A DNA stretch of 64,000 nt from Lysobacter sp. CA196 (GCF_052078695.1 NZ_JBQJIN010000031.1:1494-65493), one strand, 5' to 3'; positions 1-60,860 are shown, counted from the first letter of the stretch. The notes: generated by a model not told the origin, from the sequence alone. Made by a program: numbers and translations.

Positions 1-1763
<1,763 letters not shown>

Positions 1764-4498: not shown

Positions 4499-4876
4499 AT
4501 GTCCCTGTCCCGCGCAGTCGTCTCCTTCGCGTTCGGCGTTCTGCTCGTATCGCCCCTCGCCGGCCGTGCGCACGAAGTCGTGCCGGCCGATTGGTGCGTC
4601 AAGGAAAGAGAAACGCCGAAGATCGTCGCCAAGTTCGAATTCGACGGCCCGCAGTTGCACGAGCTGATGAACAAGTGCGGCATCGTCGAGAAAGAGGACG
4701 ACTGGGACACCGCCACCGCGACCATCCTCAGCTATTGCAAGATCGTCGCGCCGTTGAAGGACGCCGTGCCGTTCGTGATCGGACCCAAGGAGTACCTGGA
4801 CGGCAGCCACCACGAGCGCTATCGGCTCGAGCAGGGCCTGAGCGGCGCCTGCGCGGTCTGTCCGCCCAAACCCTGA
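4499..4876 (+). CDS. secreted hypothetical protein
   Basis: 125-aa product with N-terminal signal peptide MSLSRAVVSFAFGVLLVSPLAGRA and a Cys-containing mature part. Confidence 0.6.
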   Translation: MSLSRAVVSFAFGVLLVSPLAGRAHEVVPADWCVKERETPKIVAKFEFDGPQLHELMNKCGIVEKEDDWDTATATILSYCKIVAPLKDAVPFVIGPKEYLDGSHHERYRLEQGLSGACAVCPPKP

Positions 4877-7118
4877 GTGCCCCTTGAGTGGCGCTACCAG
4901 CGTTCCACTGACCGACGCGACAGGGAACGTCGCGCCGGTCAGACCAGGGCGTCGCGCCGGGTATAGGCCAGCACCGCATCGACGCAGTGCTGCAGCGAGA
5001 TGCGGGCTTCGGCGCCAGCCCGTCGCAACGGCCGAGCACGAAATAAGCCGAACGCAGCACGTCGCGCCAGCGTGGGTTGCGCGGCAGCTTGGCGACGGTG
5101 AGATAGCGCTCCAGGGCGCGCGCGCGCAACCGGCCGTCGTCGATGTTGACCCGCCAGATCCGGCTTTTCTCGGCGAACTCCAGGCGGCTGGTGCCGGTCG
5201 TGCGTTCCCAGGCCTCGATGGAGGCCAGCATCAGCTCGACCAGGCTGCGACGAAAACCGTCGCGCACCGAGGGCTCGACGCTGTCGTCGGCCGGCTCGGC
5301 AACGACCTCATCCGCCGACGGCGACGGCGGCGCAGCGATTTCGCGATCCTGCGGTGCGAGCAGGACCAGGCCGTCGCCGCCCGACCAGGGTTCGAGCGTG
5401 GCGACCAAGGGCGCGCCGTCGCGTGCGGCGATCCGCAGCCGCTGCGCAGCGCTGTCCTCCATCCGCTCCAGCGCCGAGGCCAGGGCGGCGCGGCCGGCTT
5501 CGCCGACGAACGCCGACACCGGCTGCCCGACCAGGGCCTCGTCCTCGCCCGCCCCGAGCCAGAGCCGGCCGGCGCGGTTCACCGCCAGCACCTGGCCTTC
5601 GGCATCGAGCAGGCACAGCGGCTCGTCGCGGCTGTCCAGCAAGCCTTGCAGCAGGCTGCGGTCTTCGGCCAAAGCATCCGCTTCGCGCCGATAACGGGCG
5701 AGCTCTTCTTCATGACGGACGCGCTGCGCCTCTTCACGCAAACGCGCGCGCTGATGCCGACGCTGCTGCAACAGCAGGAAACCGAGCAACACCGCGACCG
5801 CCAGCGCCGCGGCGAAGCCCAACAGCAGGGTGCGCTGGCGAAACTGCGCGCTGCGCAGGCGGTTTTCGCTTTCGAGCGCGGCGATGGTGCGTTGCTGCTC
5901 GGCCGATTCGAAGCGGATCCGCAGCCAGTCCAACTGACGGTCGTGCTGCGCGTGCGCCAGCGCGATCGCCTTGCTGTAGGCATCGCGCAAGGTGGCGTTG
6001 GCGGCCGGCGCATCGCCGGCGCGTTCCTGAGCGGTGGCCAATTCCTGCAGCAGCGGCACCCGCATCGGGTCGCCTTCGGGCGTCGTCGCCAGGGTTTCGC
6101 GCAAGCGCGTCGCCGCGGCCGCGGTGGCGCCCGACAACTGCTCGGTACGGGCGAGCTGCAGCTGCAGCGCCGGCGGCAACGGCAGTTTCCAGGTGTCGGA
6201 CAGGGCCAGCGCGGCAGCGCTCCAGCGCTGCGCCTGGGCCAGGTCGCCCTGCGCCAGTGCGACCCGGGTCAGGCCGTCGTGCACGCGCAATTCGTAAACC
6301 CGGTTGCCGCCTGCGCGGTACACGCCCAGCGCTTCCTGCAGCCAGGCCGAGGCCTGCTGCGCGTCGCCGCTGTCGAGCGCGACCTCGGCCATCGTCTCCA
6401 GCACGTGCGCGGCTTCGACCGGCTCGTCCTTGCCCCGGTACGAGGCCAGGGCCTCGCGGTAATAGCGCATCGCCGTGTCGGTTTCGCGCAGTTCGCGGTA
6501 GACGTCGGCGATGTTGTTCGAAACCGCGCCAGACACCTCGCCGCGCGTGCGCTGCAGATCGAGGCTGGCGGTCAGGCTGCGCAAGGCGCCGCGGAAGTCG
6601 CCGAGGCGACGCAGCGCGGCGCCGACGTTGCTGAGGTCGCGCGCGGTCGCGGCGGAATCGTCGAGCGCGCTCGACAGGCTCGCCGCGCATTCGAACCGGG
6701 CCAGCGCCTGCGGGATCCATTCGCGGCGGAAATCGAGGATGCCGCGCCGCCGCTCCAGTTCGTAGCGCAAGCCGGCATCGCCTTCGCCGCCGATCACCGC
6801 CTCGGCGCAATCGAGCGAGCGCTCGGCGTCCTCGATATGGCCGGCATCGAGTTGCGCCTTGGCCTGCGCGAACAAGGCTTTGACCCCGCTCTCGCCGGCG
6901 GCCTGCGCCGGCGCCAGCTTGGCCCGCTGCAGGCACAGCGCCGGTTCCGGCAACGCACGCGCCGGCGTGGCGCCCGGGCAACCGACCAACACGCCCTGCG
7001 CCCACGACCACTCGCACACCAGCAGCAGGGCCAGCATCGCCCAAGCGCGGCGGCGCTTCGATCCGGTGCTCACTTCGGCTTCGCGGTTCGGGCGCGAGGC
7101 AGAACACGACAAACGCAT
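4728..7118 (-). CDS. membrane-anchored TPR-repeat sensor/regulatory protein with PAS domain (probable frameshift near 5020; true stop likely 4939)
   Basis: Signal peptide, multiple TPR repeats, TM helix LLLGFAAALAVAVLLGFLLL, coiled coil and a PAS-like segment. Start at 7118 (MRLSCS...) has an AAGGA RBS. The last ~100 codons of the ORF as given are Arg/Pro garbage, whereas a neighbouring frame reads EARISLQHCVDAVLAYTRRDALV* ending at 4939. Confidence 0.6.
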   Translation of the reverse strand: MRLSCSASRPNREAEVSTGSKRRRAWAMLALLLVCEWSWAQGVLVGCPGATPARALPEPALCLQRAKLAPAQAAGESGVKALFAQAKAQLDAGHIEDAERSLDCAEAVIGGEGDAGLRYELERRRGILDFRREWIPQALARFECAASLSSALDDSAATARDLSNVGAALRRLGDFRGALRSLTASLDLQRTRGEVSGAVSNNIADVYRELRETDTAMRYYREALASYRGKDEPVEAAHVLETMAEVALDSGDAQQASAWLQEALGVYRAGGNRVYELRVHDGLTRVALAQGDLAQAQRWSAAALALSDTWKLPLPPALQLQLARTEQLSGATAAAATRLRETLATTPEGDPMRVPLLQELATAQERAGDAPAANATLRDAYSKAIALAHAQHDRQLDWLRIRFESAEQQRTIAALESENRLRSAQFRQRTLLLGFAAALAVAVLLGFLLLQQRRHQRARLREEAQRVRHEEELARYRREADALAEDRSLLQGLLDSRDEPLCLLDAEGQVLAVNRAGRLWLGAGEDEALVGQPVSAFVGEAGRAALASALERMEDSAAQRLRIAARDGAPLVATLEPWSGGDGLVLLAPQDREIAAPPSPSADEVVAEPADDSVEPSVRDGFRRSLVELMLASIEAWERTTGTSRLEFAEKSRIWRVNIDDGRLRARALERYLTVAKLPRNPRWRDVLRSAYFVLGRCDGLAPKPASRCSTASMRCWPIPGATPWSDRRDVPCRVGQWNAGSATQGALRVWADRPRRRRSGPARADSARGGCRPGTPWVRSRTARRPSTARRSCNS

Positions 7119-7469
7119 CAGACCATCCTTATCCGATCCCGGCACGAGGCGAACGCCAGCGTTCGCATGCGCCGGTAGCGGGCGCATGCCCGTCGCGTTC
7201 CCCTGCAGCTTCGATCAGCCCCGGGAAAAACTCAGCCCCATGCCGGTCCGCAGCGATCGGTGGCCGACGACGGAACGACCTGCGGAATTCGGCCGCCGGC
7301 ATCGCTGCCCGGGAGACGGCGAAGCCTGCCCGCTTGCGCCGAGCCTCGCTACGCCGTCCGGCGGTTCGGCCGAGCTTAGCAGTCGCGGCGCATCGCCCAA
7401 CAGGCGCGGCAACCGGTTCAGGTTCTCAGTTTTCGTGACCGGAACCGCGCAGCGCGACGCCTGCGACGC

Positions 7470-8543
7470 TCAACGCCGCAGCAGCGTCAGGGTTTCCTCG
7501 GCGAGGGTGCGGGTCAGTTGATAGGTCGACATTGCGCGGCCCAACCGCGCCGCCTGCCCCGACCATAGGGACATGAAGTCGGCGGCGCCGGCCGCCTCGG
7601 CCTGCACGCGCAGCGGCGCGAGCGCGCCGCCGGCACGCGGGAACGCCGGCGCGACCGTCGACATCGGCCCGAGCTCGCGCATTAGGCGGTTGACGATGCT
7701 GCGCGCCGGACGCCCGGTGAACAGATTGGTCAGCGCGGTCTGGTCGTCGCGTGCTTCAGCCAAGGCCTGGCGGTGCAGCGGCGACAGCTTCGCCTCCGGG
7801 CAGAACAGATAGGCGGTGCCGATCTGCACCGCCGCGGCGCCGAGCGCGAACGCGGCGACGATGCCGCGCGCATCGCCGATGGCGCCGGCGGCGATCACCG
7901 GCACCCGCACCGCATCGACCACCTGCGGCAGCAGCGCGAACAAACCGACCTGGGTCGAGACCTCGGTGTCTTCGCCGAGGAACAGCCCGCGATGGCCGCC
8001 GGCTTCGGCGCCCTGGGCGATGATCGCGTCGCAGCCGCGCGCTTGCAGCCAACGCGCTTCGCTGACGGTGGTCGCCGAGGACACGATGCGCGCGCCGGCC
8101 GCGCGCACGCGGTCGAGCAGCCGCGGCTCGGGCAGGCCGAAGTGGAAGCTGACCACTTCGGGCCGCACCTCTTCGACCAGTTCGCAGTAAGCGTCGTCGA
8201 ACGGGGTGCGGTTCGAGGTCGGCACCGGCATCGCCGGGTCCAGGCCGAACTCGCGGTAGTAGACCGCCAGACGCTCGCGCCAGGCCGACTCGCGCGCGGG
8301 ATCGGGCGGCGCCGGGCGATGACAGAAGAAATTGAGATTGAGCGGCCGATCGGTCGCGGCGCGGATCAGCCGGCATTGCGCATGGGCTTGTTCGATGCCG
8401 AGCAGGGCGCAAGGCAGCGAACCCAGCGCACCGGCCTGCGCGGCGCCGATCACCATGTCGGCGAGGGTCGGGCCGGCCATCGGCGCCTGCACGATCGGCA
8501 GCTCGATGCCGAACAAGTCCTGGATACGACGGTCGGGCCACAT
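7470..8543 (-). CDS. nitronate monooxygenase (NMO, FMN-dependent 2-nitropropane dioxygenase family)
   Basis: Start at MWPDRRIQDLFGIELPIVQAPMAG, the NMO signature. TIM-barrel FMN oxidoreductase pattern throughout. Confidence 0.8.
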   Translation of the reverse strand: MWPDRRIQDLFGIELPIVQAPMAGPTLADMVIGAAQAGALGSLPCALLGIEQAHAQCRLIRAATDRPLNLNFFCHRPAPPDPARESAWRERLAVYYREFGLDPAMPVPTSNRTPFDDAYCELVEEVRPEVVSFHFGLPEPRLLDRVRAAGARIVSSATTVSEARWLQARGCDAIIAQGAEAGGHRGLFLGEDTEVSTQVGLFALLPQVVDAVRVPVIAAGAIGDARGIVAAFALGAAAVQIGTAYLFCPEAKLSPLHRQALAEARDDQTALTNLFTGRPARSIVNRLMRELGPMSTVAPAFPRAGGALAPLRVQAEAAGAADFMSLWSGQAARLGRAMSTYQLTRTLAEETLTLLRR

Positions 8544-8639
8544 GGCGTCGTGCCTCAAACGGTAGATGCGAGGCCGCCAGGATGACACTGGCCGACGACG
8601 AGCGTCGCGACGCCGGTTGGCACGCTGCGTTGCAGCGCC

Positions 8640-9836
8640 TCACCGATCCGGCGCTGCACGCTCGCCCCAGACCGCGCCGGCCGGGTCGAATTCGGCATTG
8701 GCCATGCGCTCGCCGCGCCAACCGAAGCCGCAGATCGCCAGCGGCCCTTCGGCGAGTGGGTCCAGGCCGAAGGCTTGCTCGATGTCGACCTCGTTGATCG
8801 CCGAGGTCACGAACGCACCGAGCCCGAGCTCGGTCGCACTGAGGTACAGGGTCTGCGACAGATGGCCGCTGTCGAGCACCAGCGCGCGATAGGCCTTGGC
8901 GTGCTGGCGGTATTTCCAGAAGCTGCGTGCATAACGCGGCGTCAGCACCGCCATCGCCGGCGCATCGGCGAACCAGTGCTGCCCGGCCAGCGCGCGCAGG
9001 GCGAATTCGTGCAGCGGCGCCTGCGGTGCGGGCAAGGGTTCGAGCGCGTGATCGATCGCGTGGTAGTGATACAGCCCGGGCTCGACGCCGTCGACGCGTT
9101 GCACGATCAGATAAGCCTCGGTGGCGTGCAGGCCGCCCCCGGACGGCGTGTGCTTCTTGAGGAAGACGGTGTCGTCGTCGACCTTGACCAGGGCCTGCGC
9201 GGCGAACACCCGTTGCAGCATGTGCGCGAACAAGGCCTGCGACAGCGGGCGCGCGGCATCGAAGTTGCGGCAGGTGGAGCGGCGCGCGAGCAGCGCATCG
9301 AACTCGTTGCCGTCGGTCCGCGGCAAGCCGATGCGTTGCTCGGGCGGGCAATGTTCGAGCACCGGCGCTGGCGGCGCGCCGAGCTTGCGGCGCAGGTCGG
9401 CCACGGTATGCAGCTCGTTGGCGTCCATCGCGGCGACGGCGTCCAGGCCCTGCCAACGCGCCAGACGATGCAGCATCGCCGCCGGCGCAAACCAATGGCC
9501 GCTGCGCAGGCGTTCGTCGCGCTCGCGGCAGGCGATGCGCTGCGCACTCGCATCGGCCGCCTCGCACAGCACCAGGCCGGCGTCGAGCAATCGCGCCAGC
9601 GCCGCGTCCTCGGCCGCGCTCAACCCACTGGCTTCGACCCAGTCGCTCGGGCTCAGGCGTCCGAGCAGTTCGCGTTGTCCGGCGTCGATCTCGACCTCGC
9701 CGTCGAGATGGGCGGCGAGCGCAAGCCAACGCAGATGGCGCGACAGGCCGGCGCCGCCGGACAGCAGCGACGACAGATCGAAAGCCACCCGCTCGCGCGG
9801 CTCGAGGAAAAGCACGGAGCAGCGGCGGATGCGCAT
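8640..9836 (-). CDS. SagB-type dehydrogenase domain protein (putative peptide-maturation dehydrogenase, nitroreductase fold)
   Basis: Two nitroreductase-like halves (RSTCRNFD...; YRALVLDSGHLSQTLYLSATELGLGAFVTSA). AGGGA RBS before the ATG at 9836. Divergent from an NHLP-like precursor gene. Confidence 0.65.
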   Translation of the reverse strand: MRIRRCSVLFLEPRERVAFDLSSLLSGGAGLSRHLRWLALAAHLDGEVEIDAGQRELLGRLSPSDWVEASGLSAAEDAALARLLDAGLVLCEAADASAQRIACRERDERLRSGHWFAPAAMLHRLARWQGLDAVAAMDANELHTVADLRRKLGAPPAPVLEHCPPEQRIGLPRTDGNEFDALLARRSTCRNFDAARPLSQALFAHMLQRVFAAQALVKVDDDTVFLKKHTPSGGGLHATEAYLIVQRVDGVEPGLYHYHAIDHALEPLPAPQAPLHEFALRALAGQHWFADAPAMAVLTPRYARSFWKYRQHAKAYRALVLDSGHLSQTLYLSATELGLGAFVTSAINEVDIEQAFGLDPLAEGPLAICGFGWRGERMANAEFDPAGAVWGERAAPDR

Positions 9837-10135
9837 CGAGAGTCCCTGGGCGGCGGCGATGATCGCGGCGCGGCGGGCGGATCGCCGCCGGCCGGTCACG
9901 CGGGCTCCGTATCATGCCCATCGCGGCGACGCCCTTCCAGCGTGCGCGTCGCAGCTGAACAGGTACGGCGCGCGCGCCGCATACTCAGCGCCGACCGGCC
10001 ATGCGAGCACTCGAATGGCCGGCGATTCTGCGTTTTTGCGTGCTACGCGGGTGAGCGGATGCTGTTCGCCGCTCCCCAACAGCGATAAATTCGGCCGCAG
10101 ACAGGCCCGCAACGGGTCTTCACAAGGGGAAACAG

Positions 10136-10492
10136 ATGTCTATCGATAAGAATCAACAGAACGGGCACCCGCCGCTGGCACCCGAAATCGCCGACCGATT
10201 GCTCGATCTGCTCAGCTCGGACGACAAGTTCCGCACTGAATTCGCCAAGGATCCCGGCGCCGCATTGCAGAACAGCCTCGGCCTCGCGCCGCAGCAGACC
10301 CAGGCCGCGCTGGCCGGCGCCAGCTGCCTGCGGGTCAACTCGCTGGCCAGCAAGGAAGAAGTGCAGGCTGCGCGCGACGAACTGCGCGGCAACCTGACCG
10401 CGACCGGCACGCATACGGTGGTGTTCATGCTCGAAGTCGGCCAGGTCCAGGCCAGCCTCGGCGGCGGCTCGGGCGGCAGCACTCTGGCTTGA
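10136..10492 (+). CDS. NHLP (nitrile-hydratase-leader) family RiPP-like precursor peptide
   Basis: 118-aa product. Leader motif IADRLLDLLSSDDKFRTEFAKDPGAALQNSLGL matches the NHLP leader pattern. C-terminal putative core ATGTHTVVFMLEVGQVQASLGGGSGGSTLA is Gly-rich. Good AAGGGGAAA RBS and genuine codon usage. Confidence 0.65.
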   Translation: MSIDKNQQNGHPPLAPEIADRLLDLLSSDDKFRTEFAKDPGAALQNSLGLAPQQTQAALAGASCLRVNSLASKEEVQAARDELRGNLTATGTHTVVFMLEVGQVQASLGGGSGGSTLA

Positions 10493-10498
10493 GTGCAG

Positions 10499-10530
10499 GC
10501 GCGACGGGAGGCGGGGGCCTGCCGTCGCGC
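10499..10530 (+). terminator. stable GC hairpin immediately after the precursor gene (terminator/attenuator-like)
   Basis: Stem gcgcgacgg/ccgtcgcgc (9 bp) with a 14-nt loop, 7 nt after the stop codon. No U-tract, as is common in high-GC genomes. Confidence 0.35.
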
Positions 10531-10623
10531 TGACCGATCGTATCGGTCGGCAAACACCAGTTCGGAGCACCAGTTCGAATCGACCGGCCTGCGCATCCGC
10601 GCAGACCAGCGCCGCCGTGCGGG

Positions 10624-13188
10624 TCAGCCGCCCGGCTTGATCGCAGCGACGGCGGCGGCTTTCGCCATATCGCGCTGCGCCGCCGAAGCATCGGCGACGT
10701 TCATCGCCAGATACACCTGGCCGCCGGCCGGATCGGCGTAAGCGCGGCCGCGATGGGCGGCGATCCAACGGGTTTCGGTCGTGGCCTCGTCCTTGCGGCC
10801 GGCCGCGAGCAAGGCGTCGCGCAAGGCAACGTGGGCCTGGAAGGGTTCGCTGCCGTCGCTGAGGCCGCGCAATTCGCGGATCGCCTCGTCGGGCTTGCCG
10901 GCCAGGCGCAACTGCTCGGCGCGCGCGACCTGCAACAGCTTGCGCGACAGGCCGCTGCCGCTGCCGTTCACCGCTTTGACCACGCGCGGCAACAGGCGTT
11001 CGGCCAGGGCCCGGTCGCCCTGACGCTGGGCCAGGCGCAGCGCGGCCAACGCATTCAAGGCCAGGTCGTCCTGATCGGCGCTGTTGGGCTTGCCGGCATC
11101 GGCCAGCACCGAGTCGGCGAACAGCTCGATCTCGGCCGAGGCCGGCGGGTCCTTGCCGGACACGCTGCGCACGACCAAGTCGGTGAAGCGCAGCGGATGC
11201 CGGACCAGGATGCTGGCGCTGCGCGAGGCCCGCGCCGCTTCGCGCGCGATTTCGGCGGCCTTGGCGTACTGGCCCTGGTCCAGCGGCACGGCGATGCGCT
11301 CGAACTGGTCGACCAAGTTCCCGCTGACGACATGCCCCTGCTCGGTCAGCGAATCGAGGATGCGGTTGGCCTCGTCGAACCGGCGCATCGCCGCCAACGC
11401 CGAGGCATGGCGGCGGTTGGGCGCGTAGTGGCCGCTGAGCTCGGCCTGCTTGAACGAATCCAGTGCCTTGGCATAACGCTCTTGCGACAGGTGGATGCGC
11501 CCGGCCAGCTCGAAGGCGACGTTGCGCAAGGGCTCCTGCGGCGCGGTCGCGGCGGTGGTCGCGGCCAGCGCACTGTCGAAGCGGTTGGCGAGGAACTCCG
11601 ACCAGGCGTATTGATAGCGCCCGGCGAAGTAATCCGGATACACCCCGGCCAGCAACTTCCACTTGCCCGGCGCATGCAAGGAGGGCTGCGGACCGAACTC
11701 GGCCGCCCAGGCGTCGAGATACAGGGCTTCGCGCGGGGTCAGGTGGTCGCGCAGTTCCTGCGCGCGCTCCAGGTAGGGCCGCGCGCTGTCGGTGTCGGCG
11801 TTGCTGACGTAGACACGCATGATGCCCATGTGCGCCAGGGCGAAGTTCTGGTCGATCTGGACCGCGCGCTGGAAGTACTGCTGGGCCTCGTCGAACTGGC
11901 GATGGGCGTAGGCCTTGCTGCCGAGCGCATAGGCGCGCAGCGCATCGAGGTTGCCGGTCGCCACCTTGGGCAGCGGTTCGGAATCCTTGTCGATGCTCTT
12001 GAGCGCTTCGCCGAGCTTGCCGCGCAGCGCGGTGGTGACCTCGTCGATCGAGGTCAGCGCCGAGGCCGCACCGACGCCGTCGGCCGACTCGGCATACACC
12101 GTGGTCTGGGTGTGCGGGTCGATCACCTCTGCGCTGACCCGCACCCGGCCGCCGACTTCGGCCACCGTCGGCAGGATCACCGCGCGCGCGCCGTCGCGCA
12201 GCGCGATCTCCGAAGCGACCGCGCGGTCGAGCACGGTGTCGACCTTGCGCTGCATGCGGTCGAGGGTGTCGCGCGCCTTGAGGTCGGACAGCACGTTGAC
12301 GTAACGCGATTGCTCCAGGCTGATGCGGAAGGCCTGTTCCAGCGAATCGTCGAGCACGCTCTGCCCGGTCAGATTGCGCAGGTCGCCGACCACCACCCAG
12401 TCGCGCTGGTTGAAGGCGATCGCCGGCTGCGGCCGGGTCGCGAACCACACGCCGGTGCCGATCATCGCGAGCAAGGCGACTTCGGCGGCCAGCGCGGCTG
12501 GACGCCGCCACAAGGGAATGTCGCGCCAGGCCTTGGGCCCGTTCGGCGGCGCCCGCAACGGCGCGATGCCGGGCTCGCCGACTTCGTAGATTTCCTGCGG
12601 CTCCGGCACGCCCTTGAAGCGCCAGCGGCCGTGCGATTTCCACAACAGTTGCTGGCCGCGTTCGCCGAGCTCGCGCGCGGCGCGGTGCGCCAGCGGCTCG
12701 GCGATCGCCGACAGCAGGATCTGGCCGGGACGCGCGGTCGCCATCAAGCGGCCCGCCATCGGCTTGGCCAGGCCTTCGACCTCGACCGGCTTGGCGCCGA
12801 CCCGCACCGCCTCGTCGCTGTTGCGCCAGGTCAGCACTTCGCCGACGTGCAGGCCGGCGCGGGCCTGCAGGATCAGTTTGCGCGGCGCGCCGAGTTCGCG
12901 CAGGCCGCGGGCATAGTCGAGGGCGAAACCGAGCCCGTCGATGGGCCGCTCGAACAGCAGCAGCAAACCGTCGGAGCGGTCGATCAGGCGGCCGCGCCAA
13001 CGCTGCTGCAACTGCAGCACCAGGCGGTCGTGCTCGCGGAACAACGACGCAGCCGGACCGTCGCCGAGCCGTTCGACCAGGGTGGTCGAATCGCACAGGT
13101 CGGTCAGCAACAACGTCCGCAATTGCGGCCCGTCGGCGTTGGGTCGGTGGGCGTCGTTCATGACGGCATCCTTGTCGACGCGGCTCAT
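10624..13188 (-). CDS. class-III adenylate/guanylate cyclase-homology domain + TM + TPR repeat protein (putative peptide-modification system 'cyclase')
   Basis: N-terminus LRTLLLTDLCDSTTLVERLGD...RAGLHVGEV resembles the nucleotidyl cyclase catalytic fold. One TM helix follows, then long TPR/Sel1-like helical repeats. The start at 13188 overlaps the upstream stop as ATGA. An alternative start at 13161 has an AAGGA RBS. Confidence 0.65.
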   Translation of the reverse strand: MSRVDKDAVMNDAHRPNADGPQLRTLLLTDLCDSTTLVERLGDGPAASLFREHDRLVLQLQQRWRGRLIDRSDGLLLLFERPIDGLGFALDYARGLRELGAPRKLILQARAGLHVGEVLTWRNSDEAVRVGAKPVEVEGLAKPMAGRLMATARPGQILLSAIAEPLAHRAARELGERGQQLLWKSHGRWRFKGVPEPQEIYEVGEPGIAPLRAPPNGPKAWRDIPLWRRPAALAAEVALLAMIGTGVWFATRPQPAIAFNQRDWVVVGDLRNLTGQSVLDDSLEQAFRISLEQSRYVNVLSDLKARDTLDRMQRKVDTVLDRAVASEIALRDGARAVILPTVAEVGGRVRVSAEVIDPHTQTTVYAESADGVGAASALTSIDEVTTALRGKLGEALKSIDKDSEPLPKVATGNLDALRAYALGSKAYAHRQFDEAQQYFQRAVQIDQNFALAHMGIMRVYVSNADTDSARPYLERAQELRDHLTPREALYLDAWAAEFGPQPSLHAPGKWKLLAGVYPDYFAGRYQYAWSEFLANRFDSALAATTAATAPQEPLRNVAFELAGRIHLSQERYAKALDSFKQAELSGHYAPNRRHASALAAMRRFDEANRILDSLTEQGHVVSGNLVDQFERIAVPLDQGQYAKAAEIAREAARASRSASILVRHPLRFTDLVVRSVSGKDPPASAEIELFADSVLADAGKPNSADQDDLALNALAALRLAQRQGDRALAERLLPRVVKAVNGSGSGLSRKLLQVARAEQLRLAGKPDEAIRELRGLSDGSEPFQAHVALRDALLAAGRKDEATTETRWIAAHRGRAYADPAGGQVYLAMNVADASAAQRDMAKAAAVAAIKPGG

Positions 13189-14234
13189 GCCGACGTCAGT
13201 TCCGCGTCCTGCCAATGCACGCGATTGCCGCCCAATCGCTTGGCCTGGTACAGCGCGCCGTCGGCGTGCGCATACCAGTCATTCCATTCGTGTTTCGCGC
13301 TGACCAGGCAGGCGCCGACGCTGACCGGACAGATGGTCGGCGGCGATTGCGGGATCAGCAGCAGGCCGTGCACGGTCGAGACGATGAAGTCGGCGAAGCG
13401 CATCACGTCCTGGCGCGTCGAGGCCGCGACCAGCAGGCAGAACTCGTCGCCGCCGAGCCGGCAGGCGATGTCCTCGGGGCCGGCCACCGAGCGCAGGATG
13501 TTGGCGACGCTCTGCAGCACGCGGTCGCCGACCAGATGGCCGTGGTCGTCGTTGACCTGCTTGAAGCGATCGCAGTCGATCAGGATCAGGCCCATCGTGT
13601 CGGGCATGCCGACGCTGCGGCTTTCCTGCAGGTGCAGGGTCAGGCCGCGACGGTTGTACAGGCCGGTCAGGTCGTCGGTGCGGATCAGCTCTTCGGTCTG
13701 GTTGAGCTGGTGGGTGGTCGCGTACAGGCTGTCGAGCGCCGCTTCCAGGTCCTGGTTGCGGCGGCGCAGGCGCCGGATCAGGCTTTGTTCGTTGAGCACC
13801 ACCCGCATGATCGCGCGGCGCAGGAAATACGAAACCAGGGACGGGTCGCGATCGACCAGACGCTGGAACTCCTCGTGACGCAACTCGACCAGCAGGCCGT
13901 CGGTGGCGGCGATCGCGTCGGCGCTGCGGGCGTGGTCGCCGATCAGCAGGCCGAGCTCGCCGAAGAACTCGCGCACGCTCAGGCGCTTGGTGACCAGGTC
14001 GTCGCCGAAGTCCAGGACGATCGCGCCGCGCGCGATCACGAACATGGTGGTGCCGAGTTCGCCGCGGCGGAACAGCACCTGCCCGGCCTCGACCCGGCGC
14101 GGCCGCCCGATCTCGGCGAACAGCTCGAATTCGCCGGGCGTCAGCACGGCCATAGCCACGTCCGTTGGCGCCGCGGTCGCTGTCGAGTTGTCGGTTTCGC
14201 GGCCCATCGAGGGCACCGCCATGTCGCGATTCAT
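13185..14234 (-). CDS. cyclic-nucleotide-binding domain + GGDEF diguanylate cyclase
   Basis: cNMP-binding fold (LTPGEFELFAEIGRPRRVEAGQVLFRRGE...FGELGLL) followed by GGDEF (RLGGDEF). GGGGAGAT RBS precedes the MNRDMAV start. Confidence 0.75.
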   Translation of the reverse strand: MNRDMAVPSMGRETDNSTATAAPTDVAMAVLTPGEFELFAEIGRPRRVEAGQVLFRRGELGTTMFVIARGAIVLDFGDDLVTKRLSVREFFGELGLLIGDHARSADAIAATDGLLVELRHEEFQRLVDRDPSLVSYFLRRAIMRVVLNEQSLIRRLRRRNQDLEAALDSLYATTHQLNQTEELIRTDDLTGLYNRRGLTLHLQESRSVGMPDTMGLILIDCDRFKQVNDDHGHLVGDRVLQSVANILRSVAGPEDIACRLGGDEFCLLVAASTRQDVMRFADFIVSTVHGLLLIPQSPPTICPVSVGACLVSAKHEWNDWYAHADGALYQAKRLGGNRVHWQDAELTSA

Positions 14235-14849
14235 CCCGATCTCCCCACACCCCTCATCCTGTGGGGTTCCACCAGCAGGATAGCATCTGGTCTGAACTGC
14301 TAACGCGGGTTTGGGGCCGAAACGGCCAGCCCCGCGCCGATCTCCGCGGCCCATTGCGCGGTCGATACGTTGCAATAGCGTGGCAGCGGCGACCAAGCGT
14401 TACGCAAAGGAAACACCGCGCAACTAGGGGTTTTCGCTAAAAGCGCCGGCCGCGGCAAAGTCGCGGCGGCCTGTTCATGCGCGGCTCCGGCCCCTGCCCT
14501 CGCCCGGCCGCACACCGACATAGACCAATTGGTTATATGCGACCACCGGACCCCAGCGGCGGTCGCCGCGCGACCGTCCGGCCTGGGTCCGGCTCGGCTC
14601 GAGCCTCGGCCTGCGCGATCCGCCACTCGTTTCCGGTGCCTGGTCTGTTCTCGCGATCGCCGGCCCCTCCAAGCGACGCACAAGAGAAGGACGGGACGGT
14701 GCACGCCGGCTGTCGGGGTAGCTCGGCGGAGCATCGACCTGGACGACGTGCGGGCTTGGGGCGCCAGGCCACTGTCGCCTGCCGCACGGATCGAAGTGCG
14801 CGTCGAAATGCGCGCGTCACCGACGCCGCCGCGACGCCCCCACAACGAA

Positions 14850-14873
14850 GAAGGGCCCCTTGCGGAGCCCTTC
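14850..14873 (-). terminator. hairpin downstream of aceA
   Basis: gaagggc/gcccttc stem about 35 nt after the aceA stop. Confidence 0.3.
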
Positions 14874-14909
14874 CTCGTCCCTATCCCCTTGCGACGTGCG
14901 GACGACGGC

Positions 14910-16211
14910 TCAGGCGGCGGCCTTGCTGTCGTCGTGGAACTGTTCTTCCTCGGTCGAACCCTTCAGCGCCACGGTCGAGGACTGGTTGCCCTGGATCGTC
15001 TGAGTCACCGCGTCGAAATAACCGGTGCCGACCTCGCGCTGATGCTTGACCGCGGTAAAGCCCTTCTCGGCGGCGGCGAACTCGGCTTCCTGCAGTTCCA
15101 CGAACGCGCTCATCTGGCGGCGCGCATAACCGTGGGCGAGGTTGAACATGCCGTAGTTGAGGCTGTGGAAACCGGCCAGGGTGATGAACTGGAACTTGTA
15201 GCCGTAGCCGGCGATTTCCTTCTGGAACTTGGCGATGGTCGCGTCGTCGAGGTTCTTCTTCCAGTTGAAGCTCGGCGAGCAGTTATAGGCCAGCAGCTTG
15301 CCCGGGAACTTGGCATGGATGGCCTCGGCGAACTTGCGCGCGAACTCCAGGTCCGGCTTGCCGGTCTCGCACCACACCAGGTCGGCGTAAGGCGCATAAG
15401 CCAGGCCGCGGCTGATCGCCTGGTCGAGACCGTTGCGGGTCTTGTAGAAACCTTCCACGGTGCGCTCGCCGGTGGCGAAGGGCTGGTCGTTCGGGTCGAT
15501 GTCGGCGGTCAGCAGGTCGGCGGCTTCGGCATCGGTGCGCGCGACGATCAGGGTCGGCACGCCCATGACGTCGGCCGCCAGGCGCGCGGCGACCAGCTTC
15601 TCGACCGCTTCGCGGGTCGGCACCAGCACCTTGCCGCCCATGTGGCCGCACTTCTTGACCGAGGCGAGCTGGTCTTCGAAATGCACGCCCGAGGCGCCGG
15701 CCTCGATCATGCCCTTCATCAGTTCGAAGGCGTTGAGCACGCCGCCGAAGCCGGCTTCGGCGTCGGCCACGATCGGCTGCAGGAAGTCGACGTCGCCGCC
15801 GCCTTCCGAGCACTGGATCTGGTCGGCGCGCAGCAGGGTGTTGTTGATGCGGCGCACGACCTGCGGCACCGAGTTGGCCGGGTACAACGACTGGTCGGGG
15901 TACATCTCGCCGGCGATGTTGGCGTCGGCGGCGACCTGCCAGCCCGACAGATAGATCGCCTTGAGGCCGGCCTTGACCTGCTGCATGGCCTGGTTGCCGG
16001 TCAGCGCGCCGAGCGCGTTGACGAAGTCTTCGGTGTGCAGGGACTTCCACAGCTTGTTGGCGCCGAGCTTGGCGATCGAATGCTCGACCGGCACCGTGCC
16101 GCGCAGGCGCACCACGTCTTCGGCCGAGTACGGACGGGTGATGCCGGCCCAACGCGGGTTGCAGGCCCAGTCGTTACGGAGTTGATCGGCGGTCGGCAGG
16201 GTGTGGCTCAT
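14910..16211 (-). CDS. aceA: isocitrate lyase
   Basis: 433-aa product with the ICL signature KKCGHMGGK and overall ICL similarity. Confidence 0.9.
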
Positions 16212-16354: not shown

Positions 16355-17989
<1,635 letters not shown>

Positions 17990-18138: not shown

Positions 18139-19107
18139 GTGGCCACGACACGCAGCCTAAGTCCGCGATTTGCTTACAAAGGCGACCGGCTCAAGCCGCT
18201 GCGCGCCTTCTGCCAGACCGCGCGCCTGGGCTCAGTCTCACGAGCTGCTGAGGCGCTCTATCTGAGCCAGCCGGCAGTCACCCTTCAGCTTCAGGCGCTG
18301 GAACGCGAGATGGGCGTGCGCCTGCTCGAGCGCAGCGGCCGCCGCCTGGCCCTGACCCGCGAAGGCCAGGAACTGTACGAACTGGCCCGGCCCCTGGTCG
18401 AAGGCCTGGACGCCCTCGACGGCACCTTCCGCGAACGCATCCGCGGCCTGGACGCGGGCGAGCTCAACGTCGCCGCCGGCAGTTCGACCATCCTGTATCT
18501 GCTGCCGAAGATCGTCGAAGCCTTCCGCGCGGCCCATCCCGAGGTCCGCCTCACCCTGCACAACGTCACCGGCGCCGGCGGCCTGGACCTGCTGCGCTCG
18601 GACGCGGTCGACCTGGCCGTCGGCTCGATGCTCGACGTGCCCGGCGACCTCAGCTACGCCCCGGTCTATCGCTTCGAGCCGATGCTGATCACCCCGCGCG
18701 ATCACCCGCTGGCCAAGCTCGACACCCTGACCCTGCAGGACCTCGGCCCCTACGGCCTGATCCTGCCGCCGCAGCGGCTGACCACCTACCGCATGGTCGA
18801 CGTGGTGTTCCAGCAGAACCGGGTGCCGTACACGGTCGCGCTCGAAGTCGGCGGCTGGGAGGTGATCAAGCAATACGTGGCGATGGGGCTCGGCATCAGC
18901 ATCGTCACCGCGATCTGCCTGACCGACGCCGACCGCGCGCGGCTGTCGGCGCGCTCGCTGGCCGAGTATTTCCCGTCGCGCAGCTACGGCGTGGTGGTGC
19001 GCAAAGGCAAGTATCTGTCGCCGCAGGCGCGCGCCTTCACCGAGCTGATCCAGCCGGACCTGTTCGTGCGCGGCGATTACTACGCGACCGGTCAGTCCGA
19101 TCGCTGA
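18139..19107 (+). CDS. LysR family transcriptional regulator (divergent from aceBA)
   Basis: N-terminal HTH ...ARLGSVSRAAEALYLSQPAVTLQLQALEREMGVRLLER plus a LysR substrate-binding domain. Confidence 0.85.
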   Translation: MATTRSLSPRFAYKGDRLKPLRAFCQTARLGSVSRAAEALYLSQPAVTLQLQALEREMGVRLLERSGRRLALTREGQELYELARPLVEGLDALDGTFRERIRGLDAGELNVAAGSSTILYLLPKIVEAFRAAHPEVRLTLHNVTGAGGLDLLRSDAVDLAVGSMLDVPGDLSYAPVYRFEPMLITPRDHPLAKLDTLTLQDLGPYGLILPPQRLTTYRMVDVVFQQNRVPYTVALEVGGWEVIKQYVAMGLGISIVTAICLTDADRARLSARSLAEYFPSRSYGVVVRKGKYLSPQARAFTELIQPDLFVRGDYYATGQSDR

Positions 19108-27146: not shown

Positions 27147-29942
27147 ATGCCCCAACACCGCACTCGCCTCGCCCCGCTCGCCGCCTCGCTCGGCCTCGCC
27201 CTCGCTGTGGCCCTGTCGTCGGCCCAGGCCGAATCGCCGAAGCCGCCGGCCGGGGTCGGCGCCGGCCCCTGCGTCGAGGGCATTTGCGAGTACCGCTTGA
27301 GCAACGGCCTGCGCGTGCTGCTGTTTCCCGATGCCAGCCAGCCCACGGTGACGGTCAACCTGATCTACGCCGTCGGTTCGCTGCAGGAGAACTACGGCGA
27401 GACCGGCATGGCCCATCTGCTCGAACACCTGCTGTTCAAGGGCACGCCGCGCCATCGCGACATTCCCGGTGAGATGAAGAAGCGCGGCATCGGCTTCAAC
27501 GCCGAGACCTCGCTCGACCGCACCAACTACTTCGCTTCGTTCCCGGCCAACGACGCCACCCTGGACTGGCTGCTCGGCCTGGAAGCCGATCGCATGCTGC
27601 ATTCCGACATCGCCCGCAAAGACCTCGACAGCGAAATGACCGTGGTCCGCAACGAAATGGAGAGCGGCGAGAACAGCCCGGTCGCGGCGCTGATGCAGCG
27701 CGTGCGCTCGACCGCCTACCTGTGGCACCACTACGGCAACAGCACGATCGGCGCGCGCAGCGACGTCGAGAACGTGCCGATCGAGCGCCTGCAGGCTTAT
27801 TACCGCGCCTGGTATCGGCCCGACAACGCCACCCTGGTGTTGGCCGGGCGGCTCGACCCCGCCGCCACCTTGAATGCGGTCGCGCGCCATTTCGGCCCGC
27901 TGGCCAAGCCATCCGAGCCGATGCGCAAGTTCTACACCCTCGACCCGGCCCAGGACGGCGAGCGCGACGTCACCGTGCGCCGGGTCGGCGACATCCGCCT
28001 GCTGATGGCCGCCTACCACGTCCCCGCCGGCACTCATGCCGACGCCGCCGCGCTCGGCGTGCTCGACGAGGTGCTTGGCCACGTGCCCGGCGGCCGCCTG
28101 CACAAGGCACTGGTCGAAAGCGGCCTCGCCGCGAGCGTCGGCGGCAGCAGCGAGCAACGCCAGGACCCCGGCCTGATGAGCGCGCTCGCCGCGGTGCCGA
28201 AGGACGGCGATGCGGCCAAGGCCGAGAAGGTGTTGATCGCCCAGCTCGAACAGATTGAACGCCAGCCGGTCACCGCCGCCGAAGTCGAAGCCGCCAGGCA
28301 GCGCCTGCGCAACGGCTTCGAGCTGGCCTACACCAATGTTTCCGGCGTCGCGATGGGCCTGTCGGACGCGGTAGTCGCCGGCGACTGGCGGCTGTACTTC
28401 CACTACCGCGACGCGCTCGAGAACGTCAGTGCCGACGACGTCAACCGCGTCGCCCGCCGCTATCTGACTTCGAGCAACCGCACCTTCGGCCGCTTCGTCC
28501 CGACCGACGCGCCGCAGCGGGTCGAGATCCCCACCGCGCCGAGCGCCGCCACGGTGTTGCAGGGCTATACCGGCAAGACCGCGATCGAGGCCGGCGAACA
28601 TTTCGACCCGACCCCGGCCAACATCCAGGCGCGCACCGAGACCGTCACCATCGACACCGGCGTCGGCAGCGGCCTCAAGCTCGCCCTGCTGCCGAAGAAG
28701 ACCCGCGGCGCCACCGTCACCGTCTCGGCCTCGTTCAACTTCGCCGACCTCGCCGCGCTCGACAAGCGCGAAGTCGCCGGCAGCATCGCCGGCGCCCTGC
28801 TGATGCGCGGCAGCGAAGGCCTGACCCGCCAGCAGATCGACGAGCGTTTCGAAGCGCTCAAGACCAGCGCGCGCATCAGCGGCAGCCTGCAGTCGGCGCG
28901 CATCGACCTGACCACGCGGCGCGAACAACTCGGCGAAGCGCTCGCGCTGGCCGCGAAAGTGCTGCGCACACCGAGTTATCCGGAGCAGGAATTCGAGCAA
29001 TACCGCCTGCAGGCGATCACCGGCCTGGAAGCCTCGCGCCAGGAGCCCGGCAGCATCGCCGGCATCGCCATGGCCCTGCATTTCGACCCCTGGCCGGCCG
29101 GGCATCCGCTGCATGCGATGAACCTGGACGAGTCGCTGGCGGCGATCAAGGCGCTCAAGGTCGACGACGTGCGCGCCTATCACCGCGACCTGTACGGCAG
29201 CGCCGAAGGCCAGATCAGCGTGGTCGGCGATTTCGACCCGGCCGCGCTGAAGCAGCAACTGCGCAGCCTGTTCGCCGATTGGCGCCCCCAGCACGCGTTC
29301 GCGTCGATCGACACCCGCTACACCGCGGTCGCCGCCGAGCAGCGCCGCTTCGATACCCCGGACAAGCCCAACGGCGTGTTGCTGGCGCGCGCCAACCTGT
29401 CGCTGAAGGACACCGACCCCGACTTCCCGGCGCTGGTCGCGGCCAACTACATCCTCGGCGGCGGCACCATCAAATCGCGCCTGGGCGACCGCATCCGCCA
29501 GCAGGACGGTTTGAGTTACGGCGTCGGCAGCGACCTCGACGCCGACAGCAGCCGCAGCGGCCGCGACGACGCCGGCAACTGGTCGATCGAAGCGATCGCC
29601 GCGCCGCAGAACCTGGACAAGGTCGAACGCGCGATGCGCGAAGAACTCGCACGCCTGATCAAGGACGGCGTCGGCGCCGACGAACTGCGCGATGCGGTGT
29701 CCGGCCTGCTGACCCAGCGCGAGCAGGCCCGCGCCTCCGACCCGGCGATCGCCGCCGGCCTCGCCAGCAACCTGTTCTATGGCCGCAGCATGCAGTTCTC
29801 GGCCGACCTCGACGCGAAGTTCAAAGCGCTGACCGTCGATGCGGTCAATGCCGCGATCCGCAAGCACCTCAAACCGGAACGGTTGAGCGTCTACACCGCG
29901 GGTGATTTTTCCGCCGCGAAGAAGGCGCCGGCGGGCAAATAG
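27147..29942 (+). CDS. secreted M16 family zinc peptidase (pitrilysin-like, tandem M16 units)
   Basis: Signal peptide. HLLEHLLFKGT inverted zinc motif HXXEH. 931 aa with duplicated M16 active/inactive halves. Confidence 0.85.
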   Translation: MPQHRTRLAPLAASLGLALAVALSSAQAESPKPPAGVGAGPCVEGICEYRLSNGLRVLLFPDASQPTVTVNLIYAVGSLQENYGETGMAHLLEHLLFKGTPRHRDIPGEMKKRGIGFNAETSLDRTNYFASFPANDATLDWLLGLEADRMLHSDIARKDLDSEMTVVRNEMESGENSPVAALMQRVRSTAYLWHHYGNSTIGARSDVENVPIERLQAYYRAWYRPDNATLVLAGRLDPAATLNAVARHFGPLAKPSEPMRKFYTLDPAQDGERDVTVRRVGDIRLLMAAYHVPAGTHADAAALGVLDEVLGHVPGGRLHKALVESGLAASVGGSSEQRQDPGLMSALAAVPKDGDAAKAEKVLIAQLEQIERQPVTAAEVEAARQRLRNGFELAYTNVSGVAMGLSDAVVAGDWRLYFHYRDALENVSADDVNRVARRYLTSSNRTFGRFVPTDAPQRVEIPTAPSAATVLQGYTGKTAIEAGEHFDPTPANIQARTETVTIDTGVGSGLKLALLPKKTRGATVTVSASFNFADLAALDKREVAGSIAGALLMRGSEGLTRQQIDERFEALKTSARISGSLQSARIDLTTRREQLGEALALAAKVLRTPSYPEQEFEQYRLQAITGLEASRQEPGSIAGIAMALHFDPWPAGHPLHAMNLDESLAAIKALKVDDVRAYHRDLYGSAEGQISVVGDFDPAALKQQLRSLFADWRPQHAFASIDTRYTAVAAEQRRFDTPDKPNGVLLARANLSLKDTDPDFPALVAANYILGGGTIKSRLGDRIRQQDGLSYGVGSDLDADSSRSGRDDAGNWSIEAIAAPQNLDKVERAMREELARLIKDGVGADELRDAVSGLLTQREQARASDPAIAAGLASNLFYGRSMQFSADLDAKFKALTVDAVNAAIRKHLKPERLSVYTAGDFSAAKKAPAGK

Positions 29943-52528: not shown

Positions 52529-53245
52529 CTAGTACGGCGCAGCCTGGGCATCCAGCGCGAACTTCCGCCACAGCTCCTCGAACTGGCCGGCGAAGCAGCG
52601 CACCAGGTTGGCGTCGTCGGTCACCACCAGGTTCTCTTCGTTGCTGGTGGTCGCGCTACGGGTCCAGTTGAAGCTGCCGTTGGCCAGCACCCGGCCGTCG
52701 AACAGCGAGAATTTGTGGTGCATGTGGAAGGGGCTGTCGTCGATCCGCACCGGCACCCCGGCCTCGCGCAGGCGCAGCACGTCGCTGCCTTCGTCGAACT
52801 TCTTGTCGTTGTCGCTGATCAGGCGCACGGCGATGCCGCGCCGGTGGCAGGCGAGGATCTCTTCGCTGAGGCGGTCGTCGGAGATCGTGTACACGCAGAT
52901 GTCGACGCTGCGCTTGGCGCCGCGGCACAGCTCGCGCAGTTTGCGCAGGCAGGCATCGCCGGGCGCGAAGTAGGCGCTCGACACCACCGCGGGCGCGGCG
53001 ACCACGTCGAGGGTCTTGATCACCTGCTCCAGCCAGCGCAGCCCGTCGAGGGCATGCACCGGCTCGCCGAGCATCAGCTCGCGGGTCATGTCGAAGGCGC
53101 GGTTGCGCAGATAGCGCACCCGCTCGCTGCCGAGACCGGCGCCGAGTTCGCGCAACTCGAATTTCTCGTCGTTGTCGAGCGCGCGGTCGGCGATGCTGTC
53201 GCGCAAGGTCTGGTCGAGCCGGCCGAAATCCATGTCCCTGTCCAT
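52529..53245 (-). CDS. single-HKD phospholipase D-family nuclease-like protein (Nuc-like) with ~90-aa N-terminal extension
   Basis: HMHHKFSLFDGRVLANGSFNWT matches HxK(x4)D(x6)GSxN. The start is 3 nt after the stop of the 1790-aa ATPase gene. Confidence 0.75.
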   Translation of the reverse strand: MDRDMDFGRLDQTLRDSIADRALDNDEKFELRELGAGLGSERVRYLRNRAFDMTRELMLGEPVHALDGLRWLEQVIKTLDVVAAPAVVSSAYFAPGDACLRKLRELCRGAKRSVDICVYTISDDRLSEEILACHRRGIAVRLISDNDKKFDEGSDVLRLREAGVPVRIDDSPFHMHHKFSLFDGRVLANGSFNWTRSATTSNEENLVVTDDANLVRCFAGQFEELWRKFALDAQAAPY

Positions 53246-53248
53246 TCC

Positions 53249-58621: not shown

Positions 58622-58742
58622 GTGTCCGTCCTAACGATCCTGCCGGCCGCGCGCTAAGCCGCGCCATCGGCGTGCTGCCATGCGCCGCCGATGGCGGCGG
58701 CGCGTTCCTTGGTCCGTGCTGCTGGGTTCCGGCCGCGAGCGG

Positions 58743-60806: not shown

Positions 60807-60860
60807 CTTTGCATCTCCCTATGACTCGACTTCGATACGGATGGCGGCGACCGACGAGGG

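Follow-up and report, generated by a model that had tools for sequence, protein, structure and literature searches.

A precursor peptide and a SagB-type dehydrogenase beside a receptor-type cyclase in Lysobacter sp. CA196: a candidate input for the Xanthomonas cGMP relay

Why should the genes for a small ribosomal peptide precursor and a peptide-modifying dehydrogenase lie against those of a membrane-bound cyclase and a diguanylate cyclase? The question is posed by a locus of Lysobacter sp. CA196, contained in a stretch of 64,000 nucleotides (GCF_052078695.1, NZ_JBQJIN010000031.1:1494-65493) that is called the window below and whose positions are counted from its first letter. The GC content of the window is ~70%, and its nearest genome match is Lysobacter antibioticus. 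The four genes in question are the following.

8640-9836, minus strand: DH, a SagB/ThcOx-type dehydrogenase of the flavin mononucleotide (FMN) type; 398 aa; TIGR04511, TIGR03605, PF00881
10136-10492, plus strand: PRE, a precursor related to nitrile hydratase-like leader peptides (NHLP); 118 aa; TIGR04509; divergent from DH and convergent with CYC
10624-13188, minus strand: CYC, a receptor-type class III nucleotide (predicted guanylate) cyclase with tetratricopeptide repeats (TPR); 854 aa; TIGR04510 and TPR models
13185-14234, minus strand: GGDEF diguanylate cyclase with a cyclic nucleotide-binding (cNMP) domain; 349 aa; PF00027 and PF00990

Two modules can be distinguished. CYC and the GGDEF protein are, with little doubt, the counterparts of the XC_0250/XC_0249 relay of Xanthomonas campestris and not peptide-maturation enzymes. 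PRE and DH are quite likely a substrate and its enzyme. The model that joins the two as a whole, in which a dehydrogenated peptide would be sensed by a receptor guanylate cyclase, is evenly poised between being right and being wrong.

All four genes lie where the original prediction, a reading of the DNA by itself, had put them. DH matches TIGR04511 with 571.3 bits (open reading frame (ORF) residues 24-406, model positions 1-380 of 380), PRE matches TIGR04509 with 93.5 bits (residues 13-100) and CYC matches TIGR04510 with 1143.5 bits (model positions 2-813 of 814). The respective NCBIfam cut-offs of 240, 34 and 400 bits are far exceeded, and the profile search that had been suggested for the precursor thus places it in its family. 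Antisense ORFs were discarded in arriving at these genes, and the start of DH (ATG, 9836) was chosen by alignment with homologues. Within the window, 38 ORFs were called from the GC content of third codon positions (GC3) across the 64 kb and were scanned with Pfam. Beyond it, a profile scan of one genome per species gave 290 loci with a DH relative, and the best 80 of these 290 were analysed.

The cyclase and GGDEF protein as a signalling relay

The segments of CYC, all on the minus strand, bear on its function.

12616-13137 (aa ~18-191), minus strand: cyclase domain, with class III cyclase homology
12433-12501 (aa ~230-252), minus strand: transmembrane (TM) helix, the single one predicted
aa ~255-400, minus strand: conserved juxtamembrane domain, predicted to be periplasmic
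aa ~420 to the C-terminus, minus strand: TPR region, matched by TPR models

In X. campestris 8004, the 886-aa protein XC_0250, a class III cyclase with TPRs, is required for cyclic GMP (cGMP), which the cyclase domain, when isolated, forms from GTP (An et al. 2013, EMBO J, PMC3770947). XC_0249, which combines a cNMP and a GGDEF domain, binds cGMP; a crystal structure has been determined, and cGMP stimulates its synthesis of cyclic di-GMP (c-di-GMP). Mutants of either gene lose biofilm formation and virulence (PMC3770947). The signal of the XC_0250 TPR domain was left unknown in that study, and the peptide and dehydrogenase genes are unmentioned there.

The proteins of the window are orthologous to this pair, with the same architecture (class III cyclase-TM-TPR; cNMP-GGDEF), gene order and functional residues. 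CYC is 53% identical to the 886-aa X. campestris protein overall and 77% identical in the cyclase domain. A search seeded with the CYC of X. translucens returned X. campestris proteins of exactly 886 aa (P0138, P0140), which NCBI names 'putative peptide modification system cyclase' and which carry D41, D71, L73, A150, L157 and A161 exactly as published for XC_0250. Mutagenesis had shown these six residues to be needed for cGMP synthesis (PMC3770947). They correspond to D43, D73, L75, A152, L159 and A163 in the window's CYC, and the six positions are invariant or nearly so among 56 CYC homologues. On the GGDEF side, all seven cGMP contacts of XC_0249 are kept (F73, E90, L91, H98, V142, N145 and E146), the GGDEF motif is intact and reads RLGGDEF, and the cNMP domain matches PDB 5h5o at 1.2e-43. 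In the X. campestris locus, cNMP-GGDEF (347 aa) and CYC are followed by a gene for 112 aa that reads in the opposite direction and by a 398-aa nitroreductase, and the same arrangement is found in Stenotrophomonas and X. axonopodis. As to structural entries, PMC3770947 cites PDB 4KG1 for the XC_0249 cNMP domain; a PDB search gives only 5h5o ('Diguanylate cyclase', 129 aa) as a strong match, and 4KG1 may have been replaced by a later entry.

The N-terminus of CYC resembles class III cyclase structures (PDB 1ybt, 2.6e-12; Ma1120, 2e-10), and a single TM segment is present in 53 of the 56 homologues. Together with the TPR matches, this bears out the original prediction of a nucleotidyl-cyclase-like domain followed by a TM helix and TPRs. 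The TPR region is predicted to lie outside the cytoplasm, in the periplasm, where it would form the end of a domain of ~600 aa. Guanylate cyclase activity of CYC is predicted by orthology with XC_0250. The stop codon of the GGDEF gene and the ATG of CYC overlap as ATGA (13185-13188, read in the sequence), and through this overlap CYC is predicted to be translationally coupled to the GGDEF gene. If the X. campestris biochemistry carries over, CYC would make cGMP, and this would stimulate c-di-GMP synthesis by binding to the cNMP domain of its GGDEF neighbour; in X. campestris, the output of the relay is the control of biofilm formation and virulence.

The family names TIGR04509, TIGR04510 and TIGR04511 imply something else, namely three genes that together modify a peptide, with the 'cyclase' taking part in its maturation as an enzyme or a scaffold, and the original prediction had likewise implied such a role. 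Besides the NCBIfam names, the co-occurrence of the genes in Xanthomonadales and the capacity of TPR domains to bind peptides are in keeping with such a role. It is nevertheless very improbable. The cyclase is wholly absent from the actinomycete systems, which have PRE and DH, and the X. campestris orthologue is a guanylate cyclase (PMC3770947). The catalytic domain is that of a nucleotide cyclase, apparently coupled in translation to a cGMP receptor, and the membrane would separate the TPR domain from DH and PRE, which are cytoplasmic, a topology that befits a receptor. Because CYC appears to be a receptor-type guanylate cyclase that serves signalling, the TIGRFAM name 'peptide modification system cyclase' is misleading. 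The genomes also depart from the three-gene description, in that cNMP-GGDEF is a fourth gene of equal conservation in Xanthomonadales and just two of the three genes occur in actinomycetes.

The earlier statement that the association had been defined only computationally holds for the peptide-dehydrogenase half. For CYC and the GGDEF gene it does not, their counterparts being XC_0250 and XC_0249 (PMC3770947). No mention of XC_0251, XC_0252 or the accessions TIGR04509, TIGR04510 and TIGR04511 was found in a full-text literature search; searching by family names returned nothing pertinent, only unrelated graspetide work, and no corrigendum to An et al. 2013 was found.

The precursor-dehydrogenase pair and its likely chemistry

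A PRE homologue stands beside DH on the opposite strand in 79 of the 80 loci, often in 2-5 tandem copies, and the precursor gene, for which conservation and neighbourhood had been proposed as a check, is not a chance ORF. Where Xanthomonadales loci have sufficient DNA on either side, as in Lysobacter, Xanthomonas, Stenotrophomonas, Pseudoxanthomonas, Thermomonas and others, the genes almost always keep one order: cNMP-GGDEF and CYC in the same direction, PRE convergent with CYC, and DH divergent from PRE. Conservation in Streptomyces, Kitasatospora and Kribbella is limited to DH and 1-5 copies of PRE, and the five actinomycete loci examined have entirely different neighbours, with no cyclase, GGDEF protein, exporter or protease among them. 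The invariant core is the two-gene PRE-DH pair, which is autonomous in actinomycetes.

The DH of the window is 91% identical to that of locus L001. It is also 72-74% identical to the DHs of Streptomyces, Kitasatospora and Kribbella (L003-L013, L015, L081, L082, L088-L090), as against 53-71% for most Xanthomonadales, which suggests a fairly recent inter-phylum transfer of the PRE-DH unit. In Kribbella (L082, 8328-9916; L012), five tandem PRE paralogues of 100-104 aa diverge from one DH, and this five-copy array mixes the two tail types of the family, 'NNPH..EAG' and 'HTVVF'. Three Stenotrophomonas loci (L065, L068, L069) have two DH and two PRE genes in tandem with one cyclase, and a Chiayiivirga locus (L078) has two CYC paralogues. 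The sole exception to the pairing among the 80 loci is an orphan DH (L076, 10001-11188; 58% identical), which lies between a DASS-family transporter and a K+/H+ antiporter without PRE, CYC or GGDEF genes.

The AlphaFold2 model of PRE consists of a helical leader-like domain (aa 16-87) and a disordered 28-aa tail (aa 91-118). The family alignment was built from the genome loci with jackhmmer and holds 106 sequences; a word-indexed search with PRE gave just 18 homologues. Conservation spans almost the whole protein, and an N-terminal region reading LLDLLSxDDxFRxxFxxDPxxAL and a helix reading LASKEEI..AR are nearly invariant. The sole near-universal feature of the tail is L or F at position 99 (103/106) followed by E, D or N at position 100 (97/106), represented in the window by L99-E100. 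One semi-conserved Cys (80/106) sits in the folded leader region. Classical NHLP precursors of the proteusin type differ from PRE, which has no double-Gly cleavage site: the 106 sequences contain no conserved double-Gly column, no signal peptide and no TM segment were found in PRE, and the Pfam scan of the 38 window ORFs contains no peptidase-domain ABC exporter (PCAT). At its very end, the PRE of the window carries an unusual Gly/Ser-rich extension, GGGSGGSTLA (10460-10492). Fewer than 10 of the 106 homologues are extended; in most of the family the protein stops ~7 residues sooner, at a basic 'LRxK'.

DH combines an N-terminal domain of ~180 aa with a nitroreductase-fold catalytic domain (aa ~200-395). 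Apart from its own family, it matches the SagB model TIGR03605 with 114 bits, and PF00881. Foldseek comparison of its AlphaFold2 model (pLDDT 85.5) ranks ThcOx first (5lq4; 1e-15, ~400 columns), followed by BmdC and McbC. In this whole-model comparison the N-terminal ~180 aa also align along ThcOx, whose own N-terminal domains presumably resemble the RiPP recognition element (RRE; RiPP, peptide made by the ribosome and modified after translation). A W-K-Y-R motif is invariant in DH, and its WKY is aligned with FWKY of ThcOx; we take FWKY/WKY to be the Lys-Tyr motif of azoline dehydrogenases. The fold, the full-length ThcOx match and this motif are thus shared with the azoline dehydrogenases SagB, McbC, ThcOx and BmdC, which belong to the thiazole/oxazole-modified microcin and linear azoline-containing peptide (TOMM/LAP), cyanobactin and non-ribosomal peptide synthetase (NRPS) pathways.

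The company that DH keeps is different. TOMM/LAP systems have a YcaO cyclodehydratase and an E1-like/Ocin-ThiF partner, neither of which is found in the 38 window ORFs or in the Pfam-annotated related loci, and the PRE tail is without conserved Cys, Ser or Thr positions. The original prediction had been right to pair an NHLP-related precursor with a SagB/ThcOx-type dehydrogenase lacking a cyclodehydratase, and the Pfam scan of the 38 ORFs agrees with it that no YcaO, E1-like, LanB or radical-SAM maturase is encoded in the window. Judged from its model, DH looks catalytically competent yet is without an azoline-forming partner. An azoline substrate is unlikely because neither the window nor the related loci examined encode a YcaO or cyclodehydratase and the precursor family has no conserved Cys/Ser/Thr-rich core.

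The chemistry of the peptide is uncharacterised and, as had been anticipated, does not follow from the classical RiPP classes. By analogy, the most likely reaction would be a two-electron (-2 Da) dehydrogenation of a residue in the disordered tail, and its site is probably the conserved [L/F]-[E/D/N] motif. The analogy is provided by a 2025 preprint (PMC12636437), in which the nitroreductase domain of PflD, acting independently of a YcaO protein on an NHLP-clan precursor, turns the Phe of an 'I-F-D' motif into Z-dehydroPhe. This substrate precursor is also without a double-Gly site or a linked protease, and the authors propose that other YcaO-less nitroreductases make other dehydro-amino acids (PMC12636437). 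The PflD/PosD enzymes with their PflA/PosA precursors, from the van der Donk laboratory, thus have in common with DH and PRE a YcaO-independent nitroreductase fold, an NHLP-like leader and the lack of a double-Gly site and a linked protease. The Phe modified in the PflD system is followed by an acidic residue (I-F-D), which is comparable to [L/F]-[E/D/N] in PRE. DH differs from PflD, which carries a fused MNIO domain and has an HEXXH enzyme as its partner, and the two enzymes are likened here by their descriptions. PRE was also considered as a PosA homologue and rejected as such: the relationship is at the level of the clan only (NF038399, 24 bits against a cut-off of 40; hhalign probability 9%).

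Co-diversification across the locus and the peptide as a possible ligand

Are the two modules connected? A contiguous segment that reaches from DH into CYC bears on this question.

9312-12012: hypervariable block, comprising DH codons 1-~175, the DH-PRE intergenic region, PRE, and CYC codons ~392-854

Nucleotide identity was profiled in 150-nt windows against Lysobacter relatives whose isocitrate lyase (ICL), GGDEF and cyclase domains are 92-97% identical as protein. It is ~85-97% over the GGDEF gene and CYC codons 1-~390, drops to ~45-65% over the TPR region, the precursor gene, the intergenic stretch and the first ~175 codons of DH, and is back to ~80-87% in the nitroreductase domain of DH. 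Rates of nonsynonymous substitution (dN) between the window and six related Lysobacter loci follow the same borders.

ICL, GGDEF and CYC aa 1-400: dN 0.02-0.15
TPR region (CYC aa 421-end): dN 0.40-0.66
PRE: dN 0.42-0.75
DH N-terminal domain (aa 1-180): dN 0.30-0.37
DH C-terminal domain (aa 200-398): dN 0.13-0.17

In a wider sample, 315 pairs of loci whose ICL is 92-99% identical, median dN is 0.63 and the median synonymous rate (dS) 1.49 for the TPR region, compared with 0.105 and 0.49 for the cyclase domain. That dS should be three times as high in one part of a gene as in another speaks for older allelic lineages or for recombination, and not just for relaxed constraint.

The variable segments also vary together. 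A partial Mantel test across 56 loci, controlled for ICL, GGDEF and the cyclase domain, gives r=0.54 for PRE and the TPR region (p=0.0005), r=0.53 for DH and the TPR region and r=0.66 for PRE and DH, as against r=-0.05 for PRE and the cyclase domain. Within the Lysobacter group, similarity of PRE to that of the window is tracked by the TPR region (rho 0.95) and the N-terminal domain of DH (0.78) and untracked by the cyclase domain (rho -0.08) and the catalytic domain of DH (0.22). Loci with the window's tail type, 'HTVV', have the most similar TPR regions (55-56%) and a more distant cyclase domain (89%); in those with the 'NNPH' tail it is the other way round (38-49% for the TPR region, 92-94% for the cyclase domain). 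The TPR region, the peptide and the N-terminal domain of DH co-diversify, an observation that appears to be new.

The pherotype loci comQXP and agrBDC offer a parallel, in which modifying enzyme, peptide and receptor sensor are polymorphic together and the output domain and effector are conserved. The locus studied here resembles Bacillus comQXPA and Staphylococcus agrBDCA in having a contiguous polymorphic block of modifying enzyme, peptide and sensor domain next to a conserved output and effector. It differs in that the output is a predicted guanylate cyclase, not a histidine kinase, and that the host is Gram-negative. Unlike comQXPA and agrBDCA, no exporter or protease is conserved beside the PRE-DH pair in the window or in the Pfam-annotated related loci examined.

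The co-divergence of the peptide, the N-terminal domain of DH and the sensor of CYC suggests that the peptide may be the signal of the cyclase. It is proposed as a ligand of the TPR domain because the block co-varies and the catalytic and output domains are conserved, as in pherotype loci; the proposal is tentative and falls short of being probable. In the mechanism envisaged, DH would recognise PRE through its variable N-terminal domain and dehydrogenate a residue of the tail, and the modified peptide would be sensed by the variable periplasmic TPR region of CYC, giving a chain from peptide to cGMP to c-di-GMP. Stated in full for the Xanthomonadales, a ribosomal peptide dehydrogenated independently of YcaO would serve as a strain-specific, pherotype-like extracellular signal that is read by the TPR region and relayed through cGMP to c-di-GMP, and from there to biofilm formation and virulence; in this complete form the idea is doubtful. 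An analogy may be drawn with the peptide-activated receptor guanylate cyclases of animals (natriuretic peptide receptors, GC-C), which are also single-pass proteins, with a ligand domain outside the cell and a class III guanylate cyclase inside, and for which a peptide ligand corresponds to the one proposed here. The extracellular domains are unrelated, so that this is an analogy only, with a hypothetical ligand on the bacterial side.

The same pattern could arise between unrelated neighbours. PRE and DH would then make a fast-evolving bacteriocin-like or otherwise self-contained product, CYC would sense some other periplasmic cue, and the shared hypervariability would stem from recombination or hitch-hiking over a contiguous stretch combined with low constraint on the TPRs. 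This explanation has a modest probability. It gains from the synteny, which reaches unrelated glyoxylate-shunt genes, from the autonomy of the PRE-DH pair in actinomycetes, from the lack of a linked exporter and from the high dS of the whole block and of the sequence to its right (the nitronate monooxygenase gene included), as a recombination history predicts. It has more difficulty with the edges of the block, each of which lies within a gene and at the border of a domain, one at the first TPR repeat and the other where the nitroreductase domain starts. Similarity of the TPR region follows the tail type against the phylogeny of the cyclase domain, and the TPR ORF is full-length in all loci despite a dN of ~0.6, both of which speak against mere neighbours.

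PRE might instead remain in the cell, as a full-length small protein that is modified by DH and acts inside, or the two genes might be an output regulated by c-di-GMP. The missing signal peptide, exporter, protease and double-Gly motif would then need no explanation, conservation along almost the whole of PRE would be natural, and a precedent quoted in PMC12636437 exists in the Os1348/PosA protein, which is full-length in cell lysates. This alternative is unlikely: it gives no reason for PRE to co-vary with the TPR region in the periplasm rather than with the cyclase domain in the cytoplasm, and tandem arrays of up to five paralogues are typical of secreted peptides.

Several observations weigh against a peptide-sensing receptor cyclase, whether at the level of the peptide, the enzyme activities or their connection. 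No modification of the PRE family has ever been observed. The actinomycete pair works without a cyclase, so that sensing by CYC is not its only role, and some loci combine 2-4 precursor copies with one cyclase. The genes LysR-malate synthase-isocitrate lyase-GGDEF-CYC-PRE-DH are syntenic across Xanthomonadales and their adjacency could be merely inherited; adjacency alone is weak evidence for a link between PRE and cGMP because LysR, malate synthase and isocitrate lyase are equally syntenic across the order. The hypervariable segments are physically contiguous, and the correlations could come about in the absence of any binding, by recombination of the block or by hitch-hiking with a peptide gene that evolves fast; TPR regions are, moreover, intrinsically less constrained, and alignment error inflates dS. 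The cGMP biochemistry comes from one paper by one group, the canonical Asn/Arg of the transition state are missing from the cyclase domain, and the match of the window's CYC to Pfam PF00211 falls short of E<0.01. Finally, a required step is missing. The TPR region is predicted to be periplasmic, yet PRE and DH are in the cytoplasm, and the peptide has neither a linked exporter or leader peptidase nor a signal peptide or double-Gly motif.

Surrounding sequence and significance of the locus

The remaining features lie between and around the four genes.

7470-8588, minus strand: NMO-family (nitronate monooxygenase) gene downstream of DH; 372 aa; PF03060, 264 bits
10499-10551: a pair of GC-rich hairpins in the gap where PRE and CYC converge; inverted repeats I1 (14-nt arms, 93%) and I2

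The nitronate monooxygenase gene, which had been thought a possible member of the unit, is dropped from it: only six of the 80 loci contain it (L001, L002, L014, L017, L019 and L023), all from the closest Lysobacter relatives. A plus-strand ORF at 10753-13878 was also rejected, being antisense and having an Arg/Gly/Ala-rich translation.

PRE is preceded by a Shine-Dalgarno sequence, AAGGGG, 7 nt upstream. The hairpins at 10499-10551 may be a bidirectional terminator, though they have no T-run, and a scan for consensus terminators left them unflagged; its terminator-like matches fell only antisense within PRE and were not above shuffled controls. A promoter scan found no promoter-like sites, no Clp/CRP-type palindrome was seen by eye upstream of PRE, and an Rfam scan of 7000-15500 returned nothing at E<=0.1. 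The 3' ends of PRE and CYC are 131 nt apart in the window. In Xanthomonas and Stenotrophomonas they overlap by ~60 nt (L083, 10601-10661; L084-L087), which could lead to antisense effects or transcriptional interference.

Genes for isocitrate lyase (14910-16211) and malate synthase (16355-17989) come directly upstream of the GGDEF gene, together with that of a LysR regulator in divergent orientation (18139-19107). Downstream of the nitronate monooxygenase gene, positions 4728-7187 encode an 819-aa MalT-like/TPR_12 and PAS protein, which among the fetched loci matches only L001. Peptidases of the M16 family process some RiPP leaders, and a 931-aa M16 (insulinase/pitrilysin-type) peptidase is encoded at 27147-29942, 17 kb from the locus. 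Further away, 52529-61571 holds, on one strand, a PLD-like nuclease (238 aa), a 1790-aa protein with DUF3686 ('ATPase involved in DNA repair') and DUF7902, and two ORFs without a Pfam match (687 aa and 236 aa); it looks like a defence or DNA-processing island. The window begins with a truncated edge ORF (1-1955) whose P-loop resembles those of nSTAND1/ABC NTPases.

Genome annotation, with its 'peptide modification system cyclase', and the Xanthomonas signalling work on XC_0250 describe the same genes without cross-reference, and joining the two corrects a misleading family name. It also singles out the neighbouring peptide, presumably modified, as a concrete candidate input of a cGMP pathway with ties to biofilm formation and plant virulence. 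PRE and DH, found also in Streptomyces and Kribbella, offer a minimal two-gene system in which to study the role of a SagB-type dehydrogenase without a cyclodehydratase. If the link between peptide and receptor is true, the locus would represent a new Gram-negative signalling architecture with pherotype-like diversification, suited to peptide quorum or kin signalling. It would then be a bacterial counterpart of the peptide-activated receptor guanylate cyclases of animals, and the long-missing input of XC_0250 would have been identified.

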